Made by a program: the position numbers and the translations under genes
Shown: in pieces, positions 10,634 through 58,585 of the stretch
Numbering within the stretch: position 1 is the first letter of the stretch
Layout of the letters: every line of letters begins with the position of its first letter
From: an uncultured Alphaproteobacteria bacterium
GTDB lineage: Bacteria; Pseudomonadota; Alphaproteobacteria; Rs-D84
DNA length: 64,000 bases
Reading direction: 5' to 3'
NCBI GenBank assembly: GCA_949156565.1
Contig: CASCZI010000002.1
Coordinates: 100,611-164,610, forward strand
Notes under the pieces: model-generated
What the model saw: the letters and a program-made list of their open reading frames with translations, nothing else
What the model was told of the DNA's origin: nothing
Database searches by the model: none

Positions 10634-10857
10634 AGATAAAGACCACCCTCCCCCCTTCGGGGTACTCCCTCGAGGGAGGAGAACTTGTCTTTGTGCCACG
10701 CTGAGTTTAAGTTCCCCTCCGGGGTCGGGGTGGCCGCGAAATCGGCCCCCGCAAAAATTGAAAATTTTTGTGGGTGATACCGACGGGGTGTTTTTTTTGC
10801 CCCCCACGGGGTCCAGTGGCGAATGCCCACAAAAGAGAGGATGGTTTATTTGAACTT
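10634..10857. repeat. GC-rich nested-palindrome MITE-like repeat, copy A (long form)
   Basis: The 5' end reads AAAGACCACCCTCCCC and the 3' end GGATGGTTTATTTGAACTT. The core is CTGAGTTTAAGTTCCCCTCCGGGG. A CCCCGCAAAAATTGAAAATTTTTGTGGG submodule is shared with copy C. The ORFs predicted here are spurious. Confidence 0.55.
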
Positions 10858-10922
10858 TAATAAGTTCCCATGCCCGCCCCAAATTTTCCGATCAATAATA
10901 AATCCGCGCCATGCGCGGATGT

Positions 10923-26250: not shown

Positions 26251-28506
26251 ATGGCACGCAAGTTCAACATTTTATCCAACAGCGCCGAAGGCAAAGGTCT
26301 GCGGATTTTTTCATCCGCCGCATACAAAGAACATGAACGCACGCCCATGGCGCGTACATTTTGGCGTATACGGTGGGCCTGTTATATCTGGTTGGTGTGT
26401 GCGTTGGGATTTTCATTGGCATTTGTGGTTGAACACATATGGCGATATGGATGGTCCCCGGCGACATTGGTATGGATAAAAACATATCTAACCCATGTGA
26501 TGACGACGGGTGGATTGGCCACGATGGCGGAAATTCCATCATGGGTTGCACGCACAATTTTCCGGACAGACATCATGTGCCTGGTTCCATTTTTGGCCAT
26601 TATTGCGTATTACTTTTTGGCCGACGCCACATTGGTTGATGAATTTAACCCCAATTCCAAGGATAAATTTGACGCCAAATCATCGAACAAGGCCACCGCC
26701 GAAGATATCGCCAAAATGGGCAAAAACGGTGGTAATTTATTCAAGGGTTTTATGATGGTCCTTGGGTATTTTAAGTACAAGGGTAAAATGACCGCCATGA
26801 TGTTTGACGAATGCCTCTCGGCGTTGTGCGTCGCGCCCCCCGGGACCGGTAAAACCGCGGGCGTGTGCGTCCCAACCATATTGGATTGCGACGGGGTGTC
26901 AATGATCATTAATGACCCGAAACCAGAATTAAAACAACAAACGTCTGGTTACCGGGCCAGTATTGGCCCCACATTCATTATGAACTGGGCCGGCCAAGAT
27001 GATCCGGCACGGGGCATCTATTACCCATCATGGAATCCGTTGTCACCCGAACACGTGCCATTTAATATGGAACAACGCGATCTGTATATTGATTCAATGT
27101 GCAAGGTGTTAATTCCCGACAACACGTCATCATCGGCCGATCCACACTGGTCTTTGACGGGGCGTGCGGGATTATCTGGTCTGATTCAATTTATTATTTC
27201 CAAAATCGAACGCGCCAAGGCCGATGATTATTTTTATTCCCGTCTGAATGCAGGCACATTTGATGCCGAAGATGCCGCTGTTTTAGGCGATTATTATCTG
27301 GCCATGATTCATGATCCAAATGCGTATGCGGCACACGCCATTTTGACACGCGGGGAATTAACGGCGCAAAACTATGTCCATATTGGTACATGGTCCAATA
27401 TCCCCGACGCATGGCACGGGAAAGAGGCATCGCTCTCTATGATTCTGGATTGGATGAACGCGAACCAGATCCGCATCGCCCAGGAAATGGAATCCCGTCG
27501 TCGCCAGGGGGATCAAATGGTCATGATGGCCGACCCCATGAAAGATCTGTTCGAAGACGCCGTCAAAGAAGCGCGCCAATTCGCCTATGCCCACCGCGCG
27601 ATTTTGGAATTAACGCAACTGGCCAATACCCCGGACAAGGAACGCGGATCCATCCTTTCGACGATTCAATCGGGCCTGGGGATATTCCGAAATGCCGCCG
27701 TTCGCAACCGGACCAGTCATTCGGACTTTCACTTTTCGGATCTGCGGGGCCTGCGCGATCCCCGCGACGGCAAGGTAAAGCCGGTGACGGTCTATCTTTC
27801 GATCAATCTGGTAGATGCCCAGGCGTTAAACCCCATTACCGGGATCTTTATCGAATTGATGTCAAATTACCTGTTGGCGAACGCCCCCAATACAACAAAC
27901 GCCAGTGGCCAGAAAATGGGCCCCTATCCCGTCTTGTTCGTGTTGGACGAAATGCCCAAGATGCAAAAACTTGACGCCGTGATTCAGGGACCTGACCTGG
28001 GGCGTGGGCAACAAATATCGTATTTAATTATTGGTCAGGATCTGCACCAGATCGCGGAAAAATACGGCCAAGACGCCGCCGCCACAATTATTTCCACAAC
28101 GGCCGGGAAAATCGTCTTGCGTCAAAATGACCCCGACAGTGCGAAACGCTTTTCCGAAATGATCGGGATGAAGGTGAAAAAGAAAATGGTAAAGGGACCT
28201 GACGGCAAAGAAACCGAAACGGATGACCGCGAACCCCTTTATTCCGAAATGGACATCATGAAATTACCAGAGGGCAAACAACTGGTCATTATTCAGGGAC
28301 ACTATAACCGCCCGATAGAGGCATCCCAAGAACGCTGGTTTAAAAATAAATCAGAGATCGAGAAAAAATTATATGCCAAAGTAATGATGGGCGAAGCGCC
28401 CCCCCTGCCTGAATTTTTGGTCCCATCCCATCACCGGGCATTGTCCTATCCGGGCGTACCAAAAATCTATTACCCGGCCACCAAAGAATTAAAGGTATTG
28501 GGATAA
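26251..28506 (+). CDS. type IV secretion coupling protein (VirD4/TraG family ATPase)
   Basis: Two N-terminal TM helices and a Walker A (VAPPGTGKTAG). It also has a DPKPEL motif, a Walker B (VLFVLDEMP) and a Q-x-x-x-QI...YG motif. The protein is 751 aa with a roughly 150-aa C-terminal extension. An alternative start lies at 26347. Confidence 0.8.
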   Translation: MARKFNILSNSAEGKGLRIFSSAAYKEHERTPMARTFWRIRWACYIWLVCALGFSLAFVVEHIWRYGWSPATLVWIKTYLTHVMTTGGLATMAEIPSWVARTIFRTDIMCLVPFLAIIAYYFLADATLVDEFNPNSKDKFDAKSSNKATAEDIAKMGKNGGNLFKGFMMVLGYFKYKGKMTAMMFDECLSALCVAPPGTGKTAGVCVPTILDCDGVSMIINDPKPELKQQTSGYRASIGPTFIMNWAGQDDPARGIYYPSWNPLSPEHVPFNMEQRDLYIDSMCKVLIPDNTSSSADPHWSLTGRAGLSGLIQFIISKIERAKADDYFYSRLNAGTFDAEDAAVLGDYYLAMIHDPNAYAAHAILTRGELTAQNYVHIGTWSNIPDAWHGKEASLSMILDWMNANQIRIAQEMESRRRQGDQMVMMADPMKDLFEDAVKEARQFAYAHRAILELTQLANTPDKERGSILSTIQSGLGIFRNAAVRNRTSHSDFHFSDLRGLRDPRDGKVKPVTVYLSINLVDAQALNPITGIFIELMSNYLLANAPNTTNASGQKMGPYPVLFVLDEMPKMQKLDAVIQGPDLGRGQQISYLIIGQDLHQIAEKYGQDAAATIISTTAGKIVLRQNDPDSAKRFSEMIGMKVKKKMVKGPDGKETETDDREPLYSEMDIMKLPEGKQLVIIQGHYNRPIEASQERWFKNKSEIEKKLYAKVMMGEAPPLPEFLVPSHHRALSYPGVPKIYYPATKELKVLG

Positions 28507-28604
28507 TTCTCTATGATGGGTTCCCCCACGGAACTTTAATTTCCGTGGGTTGGGCCTGGCGGGGGGAACTATGCTATGGCATGGCACAAAGACAGATGAA
28601 TACA

Positions 28605-28636
28605 AAAAAACCGCCCATATGGGCGGTTTTTATTTA
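28605..28636. terminator. bidirectional rho-independent terminator
   Basis: CCGCCCATATGGGCGG hairpin flanked by an A-run and a T-run. Confidence 0.6.
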
Positions 28637-29848
28637 GCCATTTAATGCTTCGAACCCGACGGTCATATATAATGTTTTCCAATGTCCGGCATCTTTGCCC
28701 GTTGATTGCGGGTTGTTCCCCAGACTGCGACTGCGTTCGACGGTGGTCAACACCAAATCAGACCCCACACGTTCTAAAATTTTAAACGGATCAACACCGT
28801 CACGCCACGAATAGACGCCATCTTTTTCCACGACCAGTGCCCGGAATGCCCCCAGTATAGGATAAATAAATCCCGTTGGCGTCATATAATCCATCGGCTT
28901 TTGATAATACTTGGACATTGCCCCTTCGAATGGAACAACCCCCTTAATCGCACCATATTTACCGTTTGTAACCGCATTGCGATAGAAATCCGCCATAGAC
29001 ACTTCGATCTGATCATAAAGCTTGAAAATATCCACCATAATGTTTTTCATTTTCACATACGGATTCTGGGGCGAATCCTTATGCGCTTTATATTGCGATA
29101 AATACGTATCCAGACATCTCTTTTTTCCGCTGTATGAAATGGTTGCCGCCACATCTTTGCCGTCATATTGATCGATATTGAACATGTTTAAAACCGCCAA
29201 AACGTCCATGACGTCAATGTCCCCCCTTTCGTCATTTTCTTTGTACACCAAACGTGATGCAAACGGTTCGTTTTTTAACGCGTCTTTGACAATATCAAAC
29301 TTGTTTTCCAATTCGGCCAACGATTGATCTTTGACCTGAACCGATGTGTTACGGGCGCCGGCCAGCTCTTGAAAAATCGATTCAACCCCGGTCAATATTT
29401 CCAAACGCACATATTGTTGATCCGGCCCCAGGGAATCTTTGCATTGTTGAATAATTTTATAGGTGTGCCCCCCGTCCACGTTGCCATGCACCGCCGGATC
29501 TTCGAAAACCACACTTAATTCGTTATTATAATTGTTATAACTCACACTTTTCGCCGATAATAAGATCCCGCGATTCATTAAAAAGAAATACGGCGATCCC
29601 ACATCCATCAATGTGTTACGTATTCCCTTGGCCACAAATGTGGTTAATTTTTGTTCCCGCGGATTGGTTTCCATCGGAATATTGTTCGGCAATTTGGTCA
29701 CATCACACATCGCGATATAGGCCATCGGATGTGTCTGGGCGGAAAATTCCACCTCTTCCCCGATATAGGGATTGGGAATTTTCCGTAATGACTTTACCGG
29801 AAATTTTATTTCAATGGGTGCCTTTTGGGCTTTGATTTTTTCTGTCAT
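28634..29848 (-). CDS. putative abortive-infection/defence protein (AIPR-like; ParB/DGQHR-like N-terminal motif), tentative
   Basis: A 404-aa cytoplasmic protein. An FFLMNRGILLSA segment resembles the AIPR NNGIT block. A NVDGGHTYKII segment resembles the DGQHR/DGQQR motif of ParB-like nuclease domains. It is divergent from an XRE regulator and bracketed by terminators. Confidence 0.35.
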   Translation of the reverse strand: MTEKIKAQKAPIEIKFPVKSLRKIPNPYIGEEVEFSAQTHPMAYIAMCDVTKLPNNIPMETNPREQKLTTFVAKGIRNTLMDVGSPYFFLMNRGILLSAKSVSYNNYNNELSVVFEDPAVHGNVDGGHTYKIIQQCKDSLGPDQQYVRLEILTGVESIFQELAGARNTSVQVKDQSLAELENKFDIVKDALKNEPFASRLVYKENDERGDIDVMDVLAVLNMFNIDQYDGKDVAATISYSGKKRCLDTYLSQYKAHKDSPQNPYVKMKNIMVDIFKLYDQIEVSMADFYRNAVTNGKYGAIKGVVPFEGAMSKYYQKPMDYMTPTGFIYPILGAFRALVVEKDGVYSWRDGVDPFKILERVGSDLVLTTVERSRSLGNNPQSTGKDAGHWKTLYMTVGFEALNG

Positions 29849-29995
29849 TCTTTGCTCCTGTCTAAGGTTTGTTATCGGATACGCTGTCTAACGAGCCATC
29901 CATATTTAAATAATAAGACACCCAAATCATCAATTCAACGTCATATATGACGTTTTTTGCTTGCAAAATGCATTTTTTTAATAAAAAATTCGATC

Positions 29996-30214
29996 ATGAA
30001 CGACATTAATCGTGAATTTGGCCAAATTTTACGCCGTTTTCGACGGGGACGTAATTTGCCCCAGGATAAATTTGCCGACCAATGCGGGATTAGTCGCGCC
30101 TATTACGGGCGCATTGAACGCGGCGAATACAGTCCTACGATCACCCTATGCCATCGAATTGCGACGGCCCTGTCGATCACGATGGATGATCTTTTTCGTG
30201 ATATGCCCATATAA
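29996..30214 (+). CDS. XRE-family helix-turn-helix transcriptional regulator
   Basis: About 72 aa, with the Cro/C1-type HTH (QDKFADQCGISRAYYGRIERGEYSPTI). The start is taken at MNDIN; the ORF track begins at 29957. Confidence 0.7.
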   Translation: MNDINREFGQILRRFRRGRNLPQDKFADQCGISRAYYGRIERGEYSPTITLCHRIATALSITMDDLFRDMPI

Positions 30215-30257
30215 TCCCCCCCTGTTTCTTTGGACCGGGGGATGGATCAATCGTAAT

Positions 30258-31043
30258 TTATTCCATCCGATACGTTGTGCCACCAACCGTCACATGAATC
30301 CCGGTGCCATGGCCGGCCGTCAAATTTCCGTAACAGATGCCGCCCGGCGTCCGAATGACCAGTGTCGGCGTCGTATATTTAACCGGGAACAATGGCGCAG
30401 TATTGGTTCCGGCGTGAATTTGCGTTACCCCCGCCGTACAGAGCGGTTGGCACACGTCCCCGACGCGCCCATATCCCGCGTCACATTCCCACGGGCAATC
30501 ATTGGCGTCCGTGATGGACCCATCGGGCGCGTCGGGGGTACCCGGACCGGTATAGTGCGCGTGCGCGGGGGCATTGGTACACGGGCGGACATTGTGATAC
30601 CATTTTTTCCAGGATTCGTTACGATAACCCGACAAATAAAATCCCCATCCCGCATCATACCAAAGATAACGGGTTTGATCATCCGACCAATAGTTTTCCC
30701 CATTCCAAGAGACTTCAAGCAAGAATGAATTTCCATCAGAATCACGGAAATACAAACTACCCGCACAATTAAAGATGCTGGAATTGTTTTGGGGGCTGGC
30801 CCAGTTTGCCTCTGATCCGTCAAAAAAGGTATAGCCAAATTGGTTATAATCCGTATCGGTCGTGGGGCACGGATGGCGAACATCATCCCCCGGACAATAA
30901 TAGGGTTCATAGCCCGGGGAACAGTTTGAACACGACCCATTATTCAGATAATACCCCGCCGCACATATTGCCGCATGGGCCGTCGCCCCGCCGCCCAAGA
31001 AGACGGCGACCACGCCCAAAAAACCGACAGTTTTTTTAGGCAT
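30258..31043 (-). CDS. secreted cysteine-rich protein (C-x-AG-Y-Y family)
   Basis: A 261-aa ORF with a signal peptide. It contains CAAGYYLNNGSCSNCSPGYEPYYC and CDAGYGRVGDVCQPLC, with many Trp and Tyr residues. Confidence 0.55.
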   Translation of the reverse strand: MPKKTVGFLGVVAVFLGGGATAHAAICAAGYYLNNGSCSNCSPGYEPYYCPGDDVRHPCPTTDTDYNQFGYTFFDGSEANWASPQNNSSIFNCAGSLYFRDSDGNSFLLEVSWNGENYWSDDQTRYLWYDAGWGFYLSGYRNESWKKWYHNVRPCTNAPAHAHYTGPGTPDAPDGSITDANDCPWECDAGYGRVGDVCQPLCTAGVTQIHAGTNTAPLFPVKYTTPTLVIRTPGGICYGNLTAGHGTGIHVTVGGTTYRME

Positions 31044-31220
31044 AGTTGGGGGGAAAATTTGTCGCAGAAATCCGGGATTTTTAATTTTAGAATTATGCCT
31101 AAAAAAACTGTCCCTTTGGATTAGGCATAGTCAAATCACGTTCAACCCCAGGAATTATACCCGTTAGCACGATTTTTGACAAGGGGAAAATTGGGAACAA
31201 CGCCCCCCCGTATGGGATCT

Positions 31221-31352
31221 AAATAAAAGACCACCTCTCCCCTTCGTGGCACCCCTCCACCGGAGGGGAACCTGGACCGAACAAGCCTGAGTCTCAGTTC
31301 TCCTCCTGTGGAGGAGTACCCCGAAGGGGAGAGGTGGTCTTTACTTGAACTC
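31221..31352. repeat. GC-rich nested-palindrome MITE-like repeat, copy B (compact form)
   Basis: Perfect terminal inverted repeats: AAAGACCACCTCTCCCCTTCG at 31226-31246 and CGAAGGGGAGAGGTGGTCTTT at 31322-31342. Internal hairpins are CCCTCCACCGGAGGG and CTCCTCCTGTGGAGGAG. The core reads CTGAGTCTCAGTTCTCCTC. Confidence 0.6.
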
Positions 31353-31450
31353 TGCACCCTGTATTGGCGACCAAGGCCCGGATCCCCACCCAAAATATTT
31401 CTTGACAAATCATTATTATGTATTATATTAAAGGATACAAAAGAGGATAA

Positions 31451-50903: not shown

Positions 50904-53306
50904 TTAACCCACCGTGGCCGGTGCCACAACAAAATCAATCCCATCACCCACCACAATTTCATTGGCCCGGCACGCCGATTGGATTAATCCTTGGACCGAT
51001 TCGGGCACATTTGTGGGAATGGTCAACGTGTCCAACCGGGCACCATTACCCACCTTGCGTTCGGTTCGCAGTCCACGCACCGCCCGTACGATATCAAGGG
51101 CCGATGCCATATCGGCCACATCGGTGTTGTATTCGTCCAGAACAATCGGGAACGCCGTCCGATGCAGGGTATCCCCGCCTTCGGTCGGGCGATAGATTTT
51201 TTGCCACAATTCTTCGGTAATAAACGGGATAAATGGTGCATACATCCCCAATATTGCCCGCAAAACCGTATACAATGTCCATTGTGCCGATGCCTTGGAC
51301 ATGTCATTGTATTTTTCCGGCGACCAAAACCGATCCTTGATAAATTCAATATATTGGTCACAGAACACATCATAAAAGAATGTATCAATCGCCGCACGGG
51401 CATTATAATTGTCGTATTTATCCAAATGGCGACGCACGTCGGAAATGGTCTTGTTCAATTCCGACAATACCCACCGATCTTCGATAAAGCGATCGGCAAC
51501 AGGTACCTTTGCGGTCGTTGTCGGATCAAAATCGGTTAAATACATCAACACAAACTTGGCCACATTCCATAATTTCGTCAGCAGTTTGGATCCCCGCTTT
51601 ACCTCATCATCACTATAACGAATATCCGTTCCGATGGGGGCTGTCGCGATCCAATACCGTAATGCATCCGCCCCAAATTTTTCCACCGCCGTCAACGGGT
51701 CAACACCATTGCCCTTGGTCTTGGACATCTTTTGCCCCTTGGCGTCACGCACCAGACCATGGAAATTAACGGTCCGGAACGGCACATCACCCATGGCGTA
51801 CATGCCCATCATCACCATCCGCGCCACCCAGAAAAAGATAATATCTGCGCCGGTGTATAATAAATCTGTGGGATAATATTTTTTCAATTCCGGCGTTTCG
51901 TCTGGCCAACCCAATGTTGAAAACGGCCACAATCCGGATGAAAACCACGTGTCCAAACATGATTGGTCGCGCGTTAATTCTTTGCCCCCCGATTGTTTAA
52001 TCGCCTCTTCCTCGGTTTCGGCAACATAGATGTTCCCATCCGCGTCATACCATGCCGGGATATGATGTCCCCACCATAATTGCCGCGAAATAGACCATTC
52101 ATGAATGTCACGCATCCATGCCATAAACAGGTTGTACCGATGGTCGGGCATGAATTTAATTTTGCCGGATTCGACCGCGGCAATGGCCGGCGCAGCCAAT
52201 TTTTGGGCGTCAACAAACCATTCATCACGCACCATGTATTCAATCACAACACCACCGCGTTCGGAATATGGGGTCGGAATAACCTTGTCATCAATATGGG
52301 TCAATAAACCGGCCGCATCCAGATCCGCAATAATCGCGTCGCGCGCCGCAAAGCGATCCATCCCACGATACTTTTCCGGGACGACATCAACATCCGCCAT
52401 TTTGGCATCGTTTGTTAAAATACCCACCACCGGCAAATGATGCCGCAGACCAACCCCCCAGTCATCCTTGTCATGGGCCGGGGTAATTTTCACGGCCCCC
52501 GTTCCTTTGTCCGGGTTGGCATGAACATCGGCAATGACCGGAATTTCAATATCGGTTAACGGAATAATCGCCGTGCGGCCAATCAAATGTTTTAACTTTT
52601 CATTTTCGGGATGAATGGCAATCGCCTGGTCGCCAAACAATGTTTCGGGCCGGGTCGTCGCAATTTCAATAAATCCACCGTCCTTTAATGGATAATTAAA
52701 GTAATAGAATTTACCTTTTTCTTCCTTAATATCTACTTCAAGATCTGAAATGGACGTTTGCTGTTTCGGGCACCAATTGACCAAACGCCGCGCCCGATAA
52801 ATCAAACCGTCGCGATACATTTTAACGAACATTTTATTCACCGCACGCGACAATCCTGCATCCATCGTAAATCGTTGACGCGCCCACACCGGTGTCACCC
52901 CCAGGGTGTGCAACTGATGCACAATTTGGCCGCCTTTGTCCGCCTTGTACGCCCATGCGGCATCCAATAATTCTGATGGGGTCATGGCACGGGGATTTTT
53001 CCCATTCTTGGACAGATCGCGTTCCACCATTAATTGCATCGCAATCGACGCATGATCGGTCCCGGGTTGCCATAACACGTCATATCCATCCATACGCTTG
53101 TACCGGCAAATAATATCGGTCAACACATTATCCAGCGCATGCCCCATATGCAAATTACCCGTCACATTCGGCGGCGGCATCATGATACAGAACGGCTTTT
53201 TATCCGATGTGACATCATTGTCCCAAAACGCGCCCGTGTCCCAAAATTGCTGCATACGGGTTTCGATTTCCCGCGGATTAATGTTTTTGCCCAATTCAAT
53301 GTTCAT
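50904..53306 (-). CDS. valS: valyl-tRNA synthetase (short form lacking C-terminal coiled coil)
   Basis: An 800-aa protein with a PPPNVTGNLHMGHA (HIGH-region) motif, a KMSKTKGN (KMSKS) motif, and editing and anticodon-binding domains. Confidence 0.93.
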   Translation of the reverse strand: MNIELGKNINPREIETRMQQFWDTGAFWDNDVTSDKKPFCIMMPPPNVTGNLHMGHALDNVLTDIICRYKRMDGYDVLWQPGTDHASIAMQLMVERDLSKNGKNPRAMTPSELLDAAWAYKADKGGQIVHQLHTLGVTPVWARQRFTMDAGLSRAVNKMFVKMYRDGLIYRARRLVNWCPKQQTSISDLEVDIKEEKGKFYYFNYPLKDGGFIEIATTRPETLFGDQAIAIHPENEKLKHLIGRTAIIPLTDIEIPVIADVHANPDKGTGAVKITPAHDKDDWGVGLRHHLPVVGILTNDAKMADVDVVPEKYRGMDRFAARDAIIADLDAAGLLTHIDDKVIPTPYSERGGVVIEYMVRDEWFVDAQKLAAPAIAAVESGKIKFMPDHRYNLFMAWMRDIHEWSISRQLWWGHHIPAWYDADGNIYVAETEEEAIKQSGGKELTRDQSCLDTWFSSGLWPFSTLGWPDETPELKKYYPTDLLYTGADIIFFWVARMVMMGMYAMGDVPFRTVNFHGLVRDAKGQKMSKTKGNGVDPLTAVEKFGADALRYWIATAPIGTDIRYSDDEVKRGSKLLTKLWNVAKFVLMYLTDFDPTTTAKVPVADRFIEDRWVLSELNKTISDVRRHLDKYDNYNARAAIDTFFYDVFCDQYIEFIKDRFWSPEKYNDMSKASAQWTLYTVLRAILGMYAPFIPFITEELWQKIYRPTEGGDTLHRTAFPIVLDEYNTDVADMASALDIVRAVRGLRTERKVGNGARLDTLTIPTNVPESVQGLIQSACRANEIVVGDGIDFVVAPATVG

Positions 53307-53309
53307 CTG

Positions 53310-53831
53310 TTACTTCCTTATAATTGGTGTCCAATTTTTTGAATCTTGTTTGTATGATGCCGGATCTGTTATCTCTACCCAATGTTGGGTCCGACCAAAG
53401 GGCCCAATTTTCCCCCGCACATTTAAATGACCCGGCACATCCTGCCATAAAAGGGACGAATATACCTTGCCCGATTGGGGATCCATAATTTTGCCATCTT
53501 CATATCGATTCTCGTCCCTATCCCATTCCATGTCCCAAATAATGTCCAAACCCACGTATTTGGGCGCACCCGGTACGTTTTCCGCCACCCGAACCGCATT
53601 GCGGGGTGTATCTGTTACCTGGCCGTCGGCACCATAGAGGGCCACAATCCGACCCGCCAATTTCATATCATCACCATCTTGATATTCATAGAGTTGCACA
53701 ATCGATTTCGGATTGCCTGTTTTGTCATCAATCGTTTGATATAAATCGGCAAACGGCAACGCCGCCGATGCCGCCCCCGATAAAAACACACACATAATAC
53801 CCATTAAAAATTTGTTCATTGAATGATCCAT
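53310..53831 (-). CDS. DUF2147-family secreted protein
   Basis: A signal peptide followed by DGKIMDPQSGKVYSS, matching the DUF2147 'G.IYDP..GK.Y' pattern. Confidence 0.6.
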   Translation of the reverse strand: MDHSMNKFLMGIMCVFLSGAASAALPFADLYQTIDDKTGNPKSIVQLYEYQDGDDMKLAGRIVALYGADGQVTDTPRNAVRVAENVPGAPKYVGLDIIWDMEWDRDENRYEDGKIMDPQSGKVYSSLLWQDVPGHLNVRGKIGPFGRTQHWVEITDPASYKQDSKNWTPIIRK

Positions 53832-53919
53832 TTACCCATATCCCCATTATCGTATCAGATTTAAATCAAATTTCAAGAACCCATCCAGAACGAAAAAAAA
53901 ATTGACATTTTGACATTTT

Positions 53920-54444
53920 GTGGCACGATATACCTGGAATAATAAAAGGTTTATGATGTCAACCCCAAAAATTATTTTAACCGCAGATTCTTTTACCAAA
54001 ATTGTATCATCGGCCGGGCGCCTGGTCAACATTTACCCCATTCATTTCCGTCCCATGAAAAAGGGCACCGATGAATGGGCCCAAATCTTTCAATCCGAAA
54101 ATTTGATTGATTCCGAACATGCAAAAAAACTCTCCCTGTTTTCCCTGCCGGGTTTTCAAGGCACCTATGACATTATCCCCGAAAATTCGCGTACCGTCAT
54201 TATGCGGGCGGGATTTAATGTAAAACAATCCCGTCAACATCCCACAGACACAAAATATTATGGCTATGTCGAATTTACCCCGGATAATCCCCATAGCCGG
54301 TACCGCTTTACCAATATTGAGCATAAGGCATTGGTCCCGATGATCTTGGAACCCTTGCTTAAAGAATATAACAGACAGCAAATAGATCATGATCAGAACA
54401 AGTTAACTTATCTGCTCCAGGTTCTTAAAGAATACACACGCTAA
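53920..54444 (+). CDS. hypothetical protein, paralog of 54881-55393
   Basis: A 174-aa ORF that shares Y-G/A-Y-V/I-EFTP and a C-terminal ...L..LK.Y block with the downstream ORF. The start may be MMSTPK (53953). Confidence 0.45.
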   Translation: MARYTWNNKRFMMSTPKIILTADSFTKIVSSAGRLVNIYPIHFRPMKKGTDEWAQIFQSENLIDSEHAKKLSLFSLPGFQGTYDIIPENSRTVIMRAGFNVKQSRQHPTDTKYYGYVEFTPDNPHSRYRFTNIEHKALVPMILEPLLKEYNRQQIDHDQNKLTYLLQVLKEYTR

Positions 54445-54476
54445 AAAATTCCCGGAAATACCCGGGATTTTTTATA
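54444..54476 (+). terminator. rho-independent terminator
   Basis: TCCCGGAAATACCCGGGA hairpin followed by a T-run. Confidence 0.55.
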
Positions 54477-54490
54477 GGTATAAGTTATAA

Positions 54491-54800
54491 CGCCCACCCA
54501 CGCAAACACATGTTCGCGTGGGTGGTCCCAGGAGGGGAATTTCCATCGAATATGCCTGAGAATAAGTTCCCCTCTATTGGAGGGGTGGCGCAACGCGCCG
54601 GGGTGGTCTTTATATTCCCCGCCAGGGGGCAACGCCCCCGCAGGCGGAGAACTTACGCCGTACAACGCCACAAACCTCAGCCTTTCCTCATTGTCATTCC
54701 CGGGCTGGACCCCGGGCCCCGCAAAAACTTGTTTTTGTGGGCGGGACCCCGGAATCCAGGTAAAATATGTCCCGCGATAGCGGGATGCCTTTACCCCCCC
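54491..54800. repeat. GC-rich nested-palindrome repeat, copy C (composite)
   Basis: An initial hairpin reads CCCACCCACGCG...CGCGTGGGTGG. The core is CTGAGAATAAGTTCCCCTCTATTGGAGGGG, followed by the GGGGTGGTCTTTATATT terminus motif. It also carries the CCCCGCAAAAACTTGTTTTTGTGGG submodule shared with copy A. The ORFs predicted here are spurious. Confidence 0.5.
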
Positions 54801-54880
54801 AAAAAAACAAAACCCATTAAACAAAATTTTTATTGACAATATAATATATTTTTGTCAACCTTTAAAAAAGGAGTATTATA

Positions 54881-55393
54881 ATGTTTACCAATGATGACAT
54901 CACCTTATCATGCAGTGAGTATGATGATCTCTTATCCGCGTCAATGCATGTGATTGAATGCAAGCCTGTCGTGTATCACCCCGCGGTTGATTATGGCAAG
55001 ACCAATCGGGAATCAATTAAAAAATCAGAAAATAGAACATATCTGGAACCAGGCAATGAATATATGCACAAACTCATTTCAATCATGCATGGCGGTTTTT
55101 ATGACGTTGTAGAAGATTTAACCCCCGGGGCCCCCACACTCATACGTACCGCCTATAATGTTAATAAGATCGAGAATCTATATGACAATGATTATGCCTA
55201 TTATGCGTATATTGAATTTACACCCGGGCAACACAAAACACACCAAATTTTTCGCGGTGGATCAACTTTCGAACGTTCCCGAACGTTTGTACAAAAAATG
55301 TTGCCCTGCGTCCTGAATAAATATTATTCCCAGGAAAAAAATATCACCACAAACAAGATATCCAATATCATTACAAAATTAAAGCAGTATTAA
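54881..55393 (+). CDS. hypothetical protein, paralog of 53920-54444
   Basis: A 170-aa ORF with YAYIEFTPGQ and a C-terminal KISNIITKLKQY, aligning with the upstream paralog. Confidence 0.45.
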   Translation: MFTNDDITLSCSEYDDLLSASMHVIECKPVVYHPAVDYGKTNRESIKKSENRTYLEPGNEYMHKLISIMHGGFYDVVEDLTPGAPTLIRTAYNVNKIENLYDNDYAYYAYIEFTPGQHKTHQIFRGGSTFERSRTFVQKMLPCVLNKYYSQEKNITTNKISNIITKLKQY

Positions 55394-55422
55394 AAATCCG
55401 CCGGTTTCGGCGGATTTTTTTA
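55392..55422. terminator. bidirectional rho-independent terminator
   Basis: TCCGCCGGTTTCGGCGGA hairpin flanked by an A-run and a T-run. Confidence 0.6.
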
Positions 55423-55824
55423 ACCGTTCAGTGTACTTAGCGCCTGATCCAATAACGCGATCGCCCGTTCTATATCAACGCGCCGTGCGGTATCTGTCCC
55501 CGCATCCCGTGGCGTCGCCCCGTGCCCGACATCCCTTGGTCTTTCGCCAAATTGGTCCATCGCATCCCCGGCCCGGGCGGGCAAATTTCCATCCCGGATC
55601 AGTTTTTTAACCCCCGCGATCGTCATTCCATGTTTATAGAGTAAGTCTTTGATCACCACCAATCGGTCAACCGTTTCCGCACGATAATACCGCCGTCCCC
55701 CCGCCCCAGTGGTTGGGCGGATGGCCACTGGAAACTGCTTTTCCCAATAACGCAACGTATGTGCCGGAACATCCAATTGTTTCGACACATCGTTGATTGA
55801 TGAAAAATATTCATTATTGTTCAT
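55420..55824 (-). CDS. MerR-family transcriptional regulator
   Basis: An HTH ([22 protein letters not shown]) followed by a coiled-coil dimerisation helix. The start is MNNNEYF. It overlaps the gyrA stop by about 11 bp. Confidence 0.75.
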
Positions 55825-58585
55825 CGTTGTCCTTTGATTCATTATCCCCGGCATCATCGGTTTGGGCAATCACAGCTTCTTCGTCGGTGTCATCACGCAC
55901 AATTGATATGGCCGATACCACCTTTTCATTGTCGGCCGTGCGTAACAATGTTACCCCCGCCGTGGCGCGGCCCGCAATACGCACATCGGCCGCAGGCGTA
56001 CGGATAATTTTCCCCCCGTCGGTCACCATGATAATGTCTTGATCATCTGTGACCGGGAAAGACCCCGCCACCGCCGTGTTTTTACCCCCCAATTTAATGT
56101 TGGTAAACCCACCGCCACCACGATGCGTAATCCGATATTCATAGGAACTGGTCCGTTTACCAAATCCGTTTTCAGAAATGGTTAATATAAACTGTTCCGC
56201 CGCCGCCATTTCCGCCATCTTGGCATCATCGAGGACCAAATTCGTTGCTTCTTCGTCCGTATCCCCTGCATCTTCTTCGATCCCCGTCGCGGCACGACGC
56301 AATGCGCGTGATTGGCGGATATACGCCGCACGCACGGCCGAATCAGATTCGCCGTGATTTAACATGGCCATGCCAATAATCCGATCGTCCGAATTTAATG
56401 ACATCCCCCGTACACCGGTTGAATTACGACCGGCAAAGACGCGAATTTCCGAAACCGGGAACCGGATACACCGCCCGCGATAGGTGGATAAAAACACATC
56501 CATATCATCCGTACAGGGTAAAACGGAAATCAAGCTGTCGCCTTCGTCCAATTTCATGGCAATTTTTCCATTGGCCCGGATCGAATCAAAATCCGACATA
56601 CGGTTACGCCGCACGGTCCCCGACGCCGTTGCAAACATCAAGAAATGTTCTTTGCCCGACGCGGCAACCCGTTGCACATCTTCGTCCGACACCGGCAAAA
56701 TGGCCGTGATGGTTTCCCCATCCGAGAGTGGCAATAAATTAACCAATGGCCGCCCCTTGGCCGCCGCGGCCGCTTCGGGTAATTTGTATGTTTTTAATTT
56801 ATAACACAATCCCTTTGAACTAAAGAACAACAACGGCGTGTGGGTATTGGCCACAAATACCTGAACCACATAATCGTCTTCTTTGGTCGCCATGGCGTTA
56901 CGTCCCTTGCCACCCCGCTTTTGCGCGCGATATGTATCCAACGCAACACGTTTAATGTATCCGGTATTGGTGACCGTCACCACCATATCTTCGCGCGCAA
57001 TCAAATCTTCGATATCAATATCAATTTCTGCATCTGAAATCTCTGTGCGGCGATCGGATGCCCAACTATCGCGTATGGCCGCGGTTTCTTCGCGGATGAT
57101 TTGTGTGATGCGCGCGGCACTGCCCAAGATTTCTAACAAATCTTTGATAACCGCACCCAATTCAGTTAAATCATTGTGAATCTTGTCCCGTTCCAAACCC
57201 GTTAGGCGGTGCAACTGTAATTCCAGAATCGCGCGCGCTTGATCTTCGGACATATGGAACATGCCGTTTTCATATTCGGTGTTAGGATCGTCGATCAATT
57301 GAATGTACGTTTCAATATCCGATGCCTTCCACCCACGTGACATCAATGCTTCGCGGGCGGCATCGGGGGACGGACTGGATTTAATTAATTCAATAACGGC
57401 ATCCAAATTACCCACCGCCACCGATAACCCCAGTAACGTATGTGCGCGATTGCGCGCCTTGTTTAAATCAAAGATGGTGCGACGACGAATCACCTCTGCC
57501 CGGAAATCGATAAAGGCATCCAAAACGCCGCGAATATTAAACAGCATCGGCCGACCGCGATTTAACGCCATCATGTTGACCGGAAAACTGGTCTGCATTT
57601 CGGTGTATTGGAACAAATGATTTAACACCACGTCCGCAATGGCATCTCGTTTTAATTCAACCACCACCCGCAGTCCTTCTTTGGATGATTCATCCCGAAT
57701 TTCAGAAATACCTTCGATTCGTTTGTCTTTGATCAATTCCGCAATTTTGATAATCATTTGGGCTTTGTTGACCTGATACGGGATTTCATCAACAATAATC
57801 GCCTGATGATCACGAAAATCTTCGATATGTGTTTTGGCCCGAACCAGAATCGATCCACGCCCCGTGTTGTGTGCCTTGTACGAACCGGCACGCCCCATTA
57901 TGATCCCGCCCGTTGGAAAATCAGGCCCCGGGATAATATCAAATAATTCATCGTCGGTTATGTCGCGATTATCTAAAATAGCCAAAATACCATTGCACAC
58001 TTCGCCCAAGTTATAGGTTGGTACATTCGTCGCCATCCCAACCGCAATCCCCGATCCCCCATTGACCAAGAAATTTGGGAACTTTGCCGGCAAGACAGCC
58101 GGTTCTTGTAACGTCCCGTCAAAATTGGGATTCCAATCCACCGTGTCTTTGTCCATGTCATCCATCAACGACGCCCCCAGTTTAGAGAGTCGTGCCTCTG
58201 TATAACGCATGGCGGCGGGTTTATCCCCATCACGTGAACCAAAGTTACCCTGACCCTGGACCAATGTTTCCCCCATGGAAAAATCTTGGGCCATGCGGGC
58301 CATTGCCTCATAAATCGAACTGTCGCCATGGGGATGATACTTACCCATCACATCACCCACGATACGGGCGGATTTCACAGTTGCGCGTGTTGCGGGCGCC
58401 ACATCATTCATCACATATAAAATGCGTCGATGCACCGGTTTGCACCCGTCACGAACGTCGGGCAATGCACGATCCACAATCACCGACATCGCATAGTCCA
58501 AAAAGCTGGTCCGCATTTCATGTTCCAGCGATGATTGTGGCACTTTGATTTCATTAATTTCGTTATTGGATGTGATTTCACTCAT
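55814..58585 (-). CDS. gyrA: DNA gyrase subunit A
   Basis: A 923-aa protein with an N-terminal active-site-Tyr region ([12 protein letters not shown]), a QRDR-like segment, and a C-terminal beta-pinwheel with an acidic tail. Confidence 0.95.

Follow-up and report, generated by a model that had tools for sequence, protein, structure and literature searches.

A two-hairpin palindromic repeat family physically linked to DUF559 genes, and its probable nuclease-less doublets in an uncultured alphaproteobacterium

Introduction

Short palindromic repeats are common in bacterial genomes, and only the GTAG class of repetitive extragenic palindromic (REP) sequences has an identified mobilising enzyme. 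The other classes of short palindromic repeats "lack a dedicated transposase" (PMC3733652). The present analysis concerns a family of such repeats represented by three loci, designated copies A, B and C, in a 64,000-nt stretch of an uncultured alphaproteobacterium of the Rs-D84 lineage (assembly GCA_949156565.1, contig CASCZI010000002.1, positions 100,611 to 164,610), referred to here as the window. The family is built from a ~55-nt unit that is found in related bacteria in filled and empty sites and in tight physical linkage to genes of the DUF559 domain. Copies A, B and C are probably non-autonomous doublets of this DUF559-associated small selfish palindromic element, comparable to the paired REP sequences and Rickettsia palindromic elements (RPEs) described below.

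The best-studied relatives in kind are the REP sequences of Escherichia coli and Pseudomonas, their compound forms known as bacterial interspersed mosaic elements (BIMEs) and REP doublets forming hairpins (REPINs), and the REP-associated tyrosine transposases (RAYTs) (PMC3733652). As in these systems, the units described here are short, imperfect, mostly extragenic palindromes located after genes, which occur as singletons, inverted dimers and clusters. Inverted pairing is frequent, the dimers fold into long hairpins, and occasional copies lie in repair genes. A single protein gene bracketed by units (a "REPtron"), syntenic and apparently kept vertically within one clade, is a further shared feature. 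The present unit differs in comprising two hairpins, the second of them hypervariable, in carrying no GTAG/CGTC tag, and in bracketing a DUF559 gene instead of an HUH Y1 transposase gene. Furthermore, distant lineages share its sequence, which is found even on a Bacteroidota-type contig, whereas REPs are usually lineage-specific.

RPEs (RPE-1 to RPE-10) are likewise palindromes of ~50-150 bp in an alphaproteobacterial setting and without a known transposase. They occur between genes and also, in frame, within unrelated housekeeping genes (PMC10969869), and in-frame insertion is found here too for the family, although not for the window copies. The likeness is drawn from size and behaviour, and unlike RPEs the present family has a nuclease-carrying form and extends beyond Rickettsia. 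Correia/NEMIS, ERIC and other bacterial MITEs (miniature transposable elements with inverted repeats) resemble the window loci in their ~100-150 bp, terminal inverted repeats, intergenic location and possible long hairpins. The window copies, however, show no target-site duplication, and the family has modular units, common singletons and no related DDE insertion sequence.

The associated open reading frame (ORF) carries a DUF559 domain and so belongs with the Vsr/DUF559/EDxHD clade of PD-(D/E)XK nucleases (I-Bth0305I, PDB 3R3P; the DUF559 protein 3HRL), which includes a proven homing endonuclease (PMC3424549). Like homing endonuclease genes, the module lies inside conserved genes at alternative sites; unlike them, it has no intron or intein, is inserted in frame, and ends in long inverted hairpins that homing endonuclease genes do not need. 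Altogether, the family is REP/BIME/REPIN- and RPE-like in kind and is set apart by its two-hairpin unit, the conservation of its sequence across lineages and its Vsr-like nuclease partner.

Anatomy of the unit and of copies A, B and C

The three copies are built from a unit of ~55 nt, in which 5'-AGTTCCCCTCC is joined through a loop of 3-5 nt to GGAGGGGTG, and a GC hairpin of hypervariable sequence then leads to GGGGTGGTCTTT-3'. Hairpin 1 has a 7-bp stem (AGTTC(C/T)CCTCC, a 3-5 nt loop, GGAGG(G/A)GTG), and hairpin 2, short, GC-composed and variable in sequence, is followed by the tail (C)GGGGTGGTCTTTA. In each of A, B and C a minus-strand unit faces a plus-strand unit head to head, with a 25-nt non-palindromic centre between them. 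A covariance model (R1), built almost wholly from units outside the window and applied to the window with filters off, detected exactly five significant units, which fall in three doublets. The left unit of copy C lies below the R1 threshold and is assigned from its position and residual similarity only, whereas the right unit of the same copy is the window's best match to the family consensus. The features of the three copies are as follows.

31223-31278, minus strand: left unit of copy B, GGTTCCCCTCC-GGT-GGAGGGGTG, CCACGAAGGGG, GAGAGGTGGTCTTTT (R1 52.4 bits, E 1.5e-13)
31272-31296, plus strand: asymmetric 25-nt centre of copy B, CTGGACCGAACAAGCCTGAGTCTCA, containing the CTGAG common to all three copies
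31290-31345, plus strand: right unit of copy B, AGTTCTCCTCC-TGT-GGAGGAGTA, CCCCGAAGGGG, AGAGGTGGTCTTTA (R1 57.4 bits, E 4e-15)
10635-10691, minus strand: left unit of copy A (R1 45.5 bits, E 1.9e-11), close to the left unit of the doublet on contig L213
10685-10709, plus strand: 25-nt centre of copy A, TTGTCTTTGTGCCACGCTGAGTTTA, placed by alignment and motif match
10704-10799, plus strand: right unit of copy A, with a 47-nt insertion in hairpin 2 (R1 28 bits, E 4.8e-6)
10746-10774, plus strand: nested hairpin CCCCCGCAAAAATTGAAAATTTTTGTGGG, part of the hairpin-2 expansion in the right unit of copy A
10835-10855, plus strand: displaced, degenerate tail of copy A, GAGAGGATGGTTTATTTGAAC, which pairs with the left terminus GTTCAGATAAAGACCACC, the fold closing the outer stem
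54491-54539, minus strand: degenerate left unit of copy C, AATTCCCCTCC, hairpin CCACCCACGC..GCGTGGGTGG, GCGTTAT
54540-54564, plus strand: 25-nt centre of copy C, TTTCCATCGAATATGCCTGAGAATA
54559-54614, plus strand: right unit of copy C, AAGTTCCCCTC-TATTG-GAGGGGTG, GCGCAACGCGC, CGGGGTGGTCTTTAT (R1 61.9 bits, E 1.7e-16)
54615-54810, plus strand: mosaic of other hairpin modules appended to copy C, not of the unit family
54692-54759, plus strand: CGTC/TGTC-tagged REP in copy C, TGTC-ATTCCCGGG...CCCGGAAT-CCAG, with a nested CCCCGCAAAAACTTGTTTTTGTGGG hairpin at 54717-54741

Copy B corresponds to its description in an earlier sequence-only reading, with perfectly complementary 21-nt termini, AAAGACCACCTCTCCCCTTCG (31226-31246) and CGAAGGGGAGAGGTGGTCTTT (31322-31342), and two perfect inner hairpins of 7 bp each (CCCCTCC..GGAGGGG and CTCCTCC..GGAGGAG). 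Its full arms (31226-31271 and 31297-31342, 46 nt each) are 89% complementary at a spacing of 25 nt, so that in its size of ~120 bp and its inverted arms it has the terminal inverted repeats and the length below ~300 bp of a MITE. Folding, which had been proposed as a check, gave a single long and very stable hairpin on either strand. With RNA parameters, the plus strand reached -85.8 kcal/mol (z -9.7) and the minus strand -93.1 kcal/mol (z -10.5); with DNA parameters, the corresponding values were -43.9 and -48.5 kcal/mol (z -9.3 and -11.5). The flanks of copy B are A-rich on the 5' side and T-rich on the 3' side.

The repeat family suspected by that reading is real: the core CTGAG-N3-MAGTTCYCCTC has exactly three matches in the window, against 0.01 expected by chance, at 10701, 31287 and 54556 and always on the plus strand. 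All three loci are intergenic, as had been claimed, whereas the expected "three or more" copies stop at three in a full-sensitivity covariance-model scan of the window. Other parts of the description need amendment. The termini said to be common to all copies are intact in copy B and degenerate at the right end of copy A (GGATGGTTTAT, 10835-10855) and the left end of copy C (ATAACGCCCACC). The terminal inverted repeats exist as inverted arms, yet these arms are two inverted copies of the two-hairpin unit. The extent given for copy C holds up to 54614, beyond which lie other, unrelated hairpin modules. The copies are spaced ~20 kb apart among core genes and are ~70% alike, and are thus not recent. 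Their three centres have GC-CTGAG in common, while the equivalent centres of relatives differ, which indicates that copying in this lineage involved the doublet as a whole and not the unit alone. A scan of GC-rich segments for further hairpin islands was uninformative because coding DNA is equally GC-rich, and a tRNA and tmRNA scan of the window found none.

Across the family, hairpin 2 is hypervariable, with many compensatory changes, yet always a hairpin: at one of its pairs, a 122-unit alignment contains CG 46, GC 23, AU 23 and UA 23 times. The parts that are conserved and unpaired in the same alignment are AGTT at the 5' end, the TG linker and GGGGTGGT at the 3' end. Among 88 distinct hairpin-2 sequences, the loop is a triloop in 50 of 84, mostly GAA or GCA, and hairpin 1 also occurs with 3-nt loops. 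C-GNA-G triloops are typical of very stable DNA mini-hairpins, whereas structured RNAs favour tetraloops. In the variable stems, 14 G.U pairs lie on the unit strand against two on the opposite strand; this bias suggests that one strand matters in single-stranded form, whether as RNA or as single-stranded DNA. At the base of hairpin 2, an invariant T (GGGGTG) is apposed to a nearly invariant G (CGGGG).

Distribution of the family outside the window

An exact pattern for hairpin 1 (AGTTCCCCTC-N3-8-GAGGGGTG) matched at least 120 stretches in the metagenome collection, with 153 matches listed. The hairpin is followed by RGGGTGK, which lies outside the pattern, in 133 of these 153, and the matches listed end most often in GGGGTGGTCTTT, the tail seen in the window. 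The JGI contig prefixes of the positive stretches appear to indicate termite-gut, rumen and other samples. A strict pattern for the doublet centre had no match in the genome, metagenome and viral collections; the source species lies outside those sets, and the centre is lineage-specific. In addition, a BLAST search with the consensus unit returned one weak match in a Pleomorphomonas plasmid and none in phages.

The R1 model found at least 200 units in 564 kb of hairpin-1-positive metagenome loci. Around gyrA, it found nine in 1.49 Mb from 80 related species, compared with five in the 64-kb window, a ~13-fold difference in density; the distribution of the family is thus patchy and its abundance lineage-specific. 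The metagenome loci contain 24 head-to-head, 12 tail-to-tail and 28 tandem neighbour pairs together with 106 singletons, the latter about half of the units, and the head-to-head gaps between hairpin-1 cores measure 1-27 nt, as in the window. Protein identity to the window or its relatives is 64-80% for some unit-bearing loci, which are Enterousia-like, and 29-43% for others, which are distant. One unit lies within a protein that bears a type IX secretion system (T9SS) sorting domain, which we take as a mark of Bacteroidota and hence of a Bacteroidota-type contig.

Some units form tandem arrays in the same orientation at a spacing of ~110-150 nt (contigs L172, 500-1830; L201, 2081-2812; and L178, 508-801 and 12675-12905 in reverse-complement coordinates). 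Two public DUF559 proteins, P0031 and P0111, end in repeated ...NPALTGTPPQEGN... peptides of the kind that such arrays encode.

Association with DUF559 genes

A tblastn search with the DUF559 sequence carried by queA, described in the next section, identified ten DUF559 genes in the 2.26 Mb examined. Units lie within 9-124 nt of all ten and flank nine of them on both sides, with heads outward in most cases. The longer form of the element, which has the same ends, encodes only DUF559 and no known transposase. The encoded protein matches the DUF559 domain in Pfam (6e-26), and the nearest solved structure is 3HRL, itself a DUF559 protein (9e-15). The DUF559 clade has been grouped with Vsr and the homing endonuclease 3R3P (PMC3424549).

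The association extends to public sequences. A protein search with the unit-DUF559-unit module returned 2618 proteins at E <= 1e-10, and 88 of the best 120 of these 2618 carry a unit-encoded end peptide, either N-terminal (..SPPLEGCPxGGVV or FPSGGGVA) or C-terminal (NHPALTGTPPxEGN or HPSxGGE). The source names of the homologues include Alphaproteobacteria, Rickettsiales, Dysgonamonadaceae, Bacteroidetes and Oscillospiraceae, and some homologues from independent sources join DUF559 and QueA domains. In Enterousia-like genomes, three distinct DUF559 proteins were found, all encoded between uvrB and tsaE, and each gene is directly preceded by one head-to-head doublet that is homologous over its full length to the window copies. 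Furthermore, the right unit of copy B is a near-identical counterpart of the one that immediately precedes DUF559 on contig L209, and copy B translated in the same frame reads ...QFSSCGGVPRRGEVVF, compared with ...KFSSCGGVPAGGGGLV in the public protein P0102. The homology of the doublets and this near-identity identify the window copies as the same doublet without the nuclease. A literature search, in an incomplete library, found no paper tying DUF559 to repeats, and searches there with sequence strings were also without result.

On contig L213 (1466-1522), the annotated ATG start codon of DUF559 lies in the hairpin-2 loop GCGCGAATGCGAC, and the GGAGG of the 3' arm of hairpin 1 stands ~10 nt upstream.

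Mobility in queA and other genes

The unit family is mobile. Five related contigs carry orthologous queA genes with filled and empty alleles at three sites, as follows.

Site 1 (after ...SRMLVV): unit-DUF559-unit of ~0.45 kb in L097, L186, L202 and L088; solo unit in none; empty in L175 and L104
Site 3 (after ...VIPARF): unit-DUF559-unit in none; solo unit of 51 nt in L097 and L202; empty in L186, L175 and L104
Site C (after ...TSMRTLESA): unit-DUF559-unit in L175 and L104; solo unit in L097; empty in L202 and L186

All queA inserts keep the reading frame, which runs through unit, DUF559 and unit, and in L097 the Pfam domain Queuosine_synth is split by DUF559. A nuclease of the Vsr/DUF559 clade is thus inserted inside queA at two alternative sites, as homing endonuclease genes are. 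At site 1, TTGGTGGTT and GGGGTGGTG stand on either side of the composite as an imperfect direct repeat of 9 nt, of which the empty allele has TTGGTGGTG once. These flanks resemble the unit's own tail and may reflect target preference rather than duplication. No direct repeats were seen flanking the solo unit at site 3 or copies A, B and C, for which an insertion-site duplication had been a proposed check. The queA gene of L088 (294-1076, reverse-complement coordinates) lacks everything between site 1 and site C, consistent with deletion by recombination between two copies of the element, which would make it a pseudogene.

Insertion into genes is not confined to queA. Of 212 units in the metagenome loci, 51 are embedded in open frames that reach at least 60 codons on either side, and the host genes confirmed by Pfam include priA, uvrD, leuS and those of a type ISP restriction enzyme and a DNA methylase. 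Of the natures that the sequence-only reading had left open, the mobile miniature or REP/RPE-like branch is therefore the one supported: filled and empty sites occur in related bacteria, inverted doublets are typical of REP dimers, and the in-frame copies are RPE-like. Its label of a MITE with terminal inverted repeats was imprecise, since the window copies have no target-site duplication, no DDE transposase accompanies the family and the associated gene is DUF559.

Genomic context in the window

The window is chromosomal DNA of a gut alphaproteobacterium close to "Candidatus Enterousia", and it corresponds to positions ~247797-311796 of contig CARIEI010000001.1 in assembly GCA_948993165.1. 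Its core genes include gyrA, leuS, murG, ftsW, der and efp, and copies A, B and C each lie outside predicted promoter-to-terminator spans. Copy B sits between two divergent promoter-like sites, each matching 11 of 12 positions, and upstream of both -35 boxes; copy C follows a terminator-like hairpin and ends ahead of the next promoter-like sites. The other intergenic regions inspected in the window were ordinary. The flanking signals are as follows.

31154-31182, minus strand: promoter-like site (11/12) of the leftward 261-aa ORF, with copy B upstream of its -35 element
31402-31429, plus strand: promoter-like site (11/12) of the rightward 140-aa ORF, with copy B upstream of its -35 element
54450-54467, plus strand: terminator-like hairpin and T-run of the upstream 174-aa ORF, with copy C beginning ~20 nt later
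10902-10920, minus strand: terminator-like hairpin of the 238-aa ORF, with copy A between this hairpin and the marR promoter-like site (10516-10488)

Copy B is at the right edge of a small island among the core genes (26251-31043). The island encodes a type IV secretion system (T4SS) coupling protein of VirD4/TraG type (26251-28506, plus strand), an AIPR abortive-infection protein (28634-29848, minus strand), a short ORF with an XRE-type helix-turn-helix (~29996-30215, plus strand) and a 261-aa orphan (30258-31043, minus strand). Metagenome contig L094 carries a coupling protein 66% identical to that of the island together with three unit doublets within 12 kb. A 27-nt inverted repeat (31021-31047 and 31091-31117; 89% complementary, 43 nt apart) spans the start and 5' leader of the 261-aa ORF; it could be an operator or a leader hairpin and is unrelated to the unit family.

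Read on the minus strand, window positions 50904-58585 have the order gyrA-merR-(p170, copy C, p174)-DUF2147-leuS, whereas most of the 80 relatives have DUF2147-leuS-(1.5 kb)-gyrA-merR. Copy C and its two neighbouring orphan ORFs thus stand exactly at a rearrangement junction relative to those species, and because this junction is lineage-specific, gyrA synteny across the 80 relatives offers no orthologous empty site there.

The repeats also leave traces in assemblies and annotations. One public contig ends inside the nested palindrome of copy A (L086, 3718-3878), which indicates that elements of this kind break short-read assemblies. Spurious ORF calls arise from the elements, for example L084 3-398, and an apparently short spacer in L084 is such a call.

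Other palindromic modules

The hairpin at 54692-54759 fits the CGTC-tagged REP class (dRS3/RPE-4/6-like) as defined by Di Nocera et al. (PMC3733652). It adjoins the doublet of copy C, which makes that copy a mosaic of at least three kinds of repeat. The CGTC class has no dedicated transposase (Di Nocera et al., PMC3733652). On three contigs from relatives, CGTC-type REP hairpins, GTCATTCCTGC...GCAGGAATGAC, lie on both sides of a small gene for a GIY-YIG nuclease (L040, 5380-5915, with the GIY-YIG ORF at 5517-5870 on the minus strand; L045, 6089-6436; L059, 1057-1326). On L040, a region of ~1.1 kb is bounded by inverted copies of a terminator, a unit and a purine-rich stretch. The GIY-YIG gene may be the partner of CGTC REPs, which suggests that small nuclease partners may be a wider pattern among "orphan" REP classes.

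A tiny AT-centred hairpin, CCCCGCAAAAA-N-TTTTTGTGGG, recurs nested within other hairpins. In the window it is found in hairpin 2 of the right unit of copy A (10746-10774) and in the CGTC REP of copy C (54717-54741), and elsewhere in L052 (8050-8080), in a hairpin-1 loop of L209 (2566-2600) and in hairpin 2 in L097 (~8540-8570). It has the appearance of a third kind of small insertion module, one directed at hairpin loops.

Proposed mechanism

The following scheme would connect the unit with its associated gene. The doublet can extrude as one hairpin of ~55 bp or as a cruciform. In other bacteria, the unit forms the inverted ends of a ~0.45-kb module whose sole gene is the DUF559 endonuclease, Vsr-like and of PD-(D/E)XK type, and this nuclease would recognise the folded unit. 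Vsr cuts next to a T.G mismatch; by analogy, the T.G apposition at the base of hairpin 2 is a possible recognition feature. A nick at the folded unit would then allow repair or replication to copy a unit, a doublet or the nuclease module into new sites. Copies that lack the nuclease gene, A, B and C among them, could be acted on in trans and may still be mobilisable, and the syntenic gene between uvrB and tsaE would play the part that single-copy RAYT genes play for REPINs.

In its widest form, this scheme would make the unit and DUF559 a mobile system that spans phyla, has not been described before and runs parallel to REPIN-RAYT. In that system, a Vsr-like nuclease would recognise the hairpins and drive their spread, including in-frame entry into queA, priA, uvrD and leuS, and the window elements would be nuclease-less offspring. 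We regard this wider form as possible but short of probable, in contrast to the narrower assignment of the window copies as non-autonomous doublets.

Several points weigh against the favoured assignment or against DUF559 as the mobilising enzyme. No DUF559 gene lies within the 64-kb window, and units far outnumber DUF559 genes. The activity of the nuclease on these hairpins is putative, and the DUF559 gene might be only carried along, or its expression might be controlled by the unit. On L213, the GGAGG ahead of the start codon is a likely ribosome-binding site, which the unit could sequester and so control translation of the nuclease. The synteny of the uvrB-DUF559-tsaE locus across species is as compatible with a resident gene as with one domesticated in the manner of a RAYT. 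Moreover, counts of co-occurrence are biased by the choice of the metagenome loci, which were selected because they carry units. For the window copies themselves, no empty sites were found, all strain contigs recovered through flanking proteins keep A and C unchanged, and at ~70% likeness such old copies may be inert.

Alternative explanations

A strict REP/REPIN system, in which a RAYT of the HUH Y1 type elsewhere in the genome moves the units in trans and DUF559 is a mere frequent neighbour or insertion target, agrees with the organisation of the family in head-to-head doublets, singletons and clusters, head-to-head dimers being predominant among REPs (PMC3733652). The extragenic position of the window copies after terminators also suits it, and intragenic REPs in repair genes are known (PMC3733652). 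It is nevertheless unlikely, because the 122-unit alignment contains neither a GTAG nor a CGTC tag and the gene bracketed by units was DUF559 in ten cases of ten. In addition, no IS200/RAYT-like Y1 ORF was detected in the 2.26 Mb by phmmer, a weak test with an approximate IS200 TnpA query, and no transposase family was among the 25 most frequent of 156 Pfam families in 150 neighbouring ORFs, unit-overlapping ORFs having been left out. A classical MITE would derive by deletion from an insertion sequence with a DDE transposase and would move by cut-and-paste, duplicating its target site. Such an element would account for the ~120 bp and terminal inverted repeats of copy B, and the flanks of the composite at queA site 1 could be a 9-bp duplication. 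The resemblance of those flanks to the unit tail leaves room for target preference instead, however, and direct repeats are missing at A, B and C and at the solo unit of queA site 3. About half of the units have no inverted partner, and no DDE transposase was found near any copy, so that this origin appears improbable.

The remaining explanations give the repeats a function for the host. Structured RNAs, either small RNAs (sRNAs) or cis-regulatory hairpins acting as terminators, mRNA stabilisers or sequesterers of ribosome-binding sites, would be in keeping with the very stable folds, the covariation of hairpin 2, the excess of G.U pairs on the unit strand (14 vs 2), the flanks of copy B, which resemble a bidirectional terminator, and the arrangement on L213, where GGAGG can be sequestered within hairpin 1 and the loop of hairpin 2 holds the start codon. 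The sRNA branch of the sequence-only reading nonetheless fares poorly. Rfam gave no match at gathering score in the window, with only chance-level microRNA matches to copy B at E <= 10, and in 20 unit-rich loci it gave one tRNA only and no intron. Each copy either separates a terminator from the promoter that follows or lies in the space between two divergent promoters, and the promoter scan found none that would transcribe copy B. Furthermore, units are found in either orientation, as arrays and as in-frame parts of ORFs, they have filled and empty alleles and mainly GAA and GCA triloops instead of the tetraloops usual in RNA, and their density differs ~13-fold between the window and its relatives. 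We consider selection for such an RNA role to be very unlikely. Host-serving DNA sites, whether bound by a nucleoid protein, gyrase or a recombinase or absorbing supercoils as cruciforms, would be immobile in this lineage and compatible with a selfish origin. Such sites could explain why the copies lie between transcription units, share one orientation and, in the case of A and C, show no change in any strain contig recovered, and why C marks a rearrangement junction. Three same-strand copies are, however, expected by chance one time in four; relatives showed no conserved position for them, the family is patchily distributed and it demonstrably moves elsewhere, which leaves little probability for this account, although a secondary role of this kind is possible.

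Other candidates were rejected at an earlier stage. The termini AAAGACCACC and GGTGGTCTTT are not the R''/R' core sites of integron attC sites (RYYYAAC ... GTTRRRY), and the copies lie ~20 kb apart among core genes. Inteins were dismissed on the lack of a Cys/Ser...HN signature and of an intein domain in the Pfam scan. Attachment (att) sites of a T4SS island, Chi sites, FtsK-orienting (KOPS) sites, and CsrB-like or anti-Shine-Dalgarno small RNAs were considered and dropped.

Having weighed these alternatives, we retain the reading of A, B and C as nuclease-less doublets of a selfish palindromic element. Most likely, the window copies have no dedicated host function. The formation of hairpins or cruciforms between promoters and after terminators is a possible side effect, and on the simplest view the copies are old selfish elements that have, at most, side effects on local DNA structure.

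Significance

The unit described here ranges from gut Alphaproteobacteria to a Bacteroidota-type contig and is physically tied to a tiny Vsr-like nuclease, whose DUF559 homologues number in the thousands. In practical terms, such units yield spurious ORFs, N- and C-terminal extensions in DUF559 annotations, fused neighbour genes and broken assemblies. If the link between unit and nuclease is causal, DUF559 would gain a function and a second enzyme class for REP-like mobility would be defined. The entry of palindromes in frame into essential genes, without destroying them, would then become testable.

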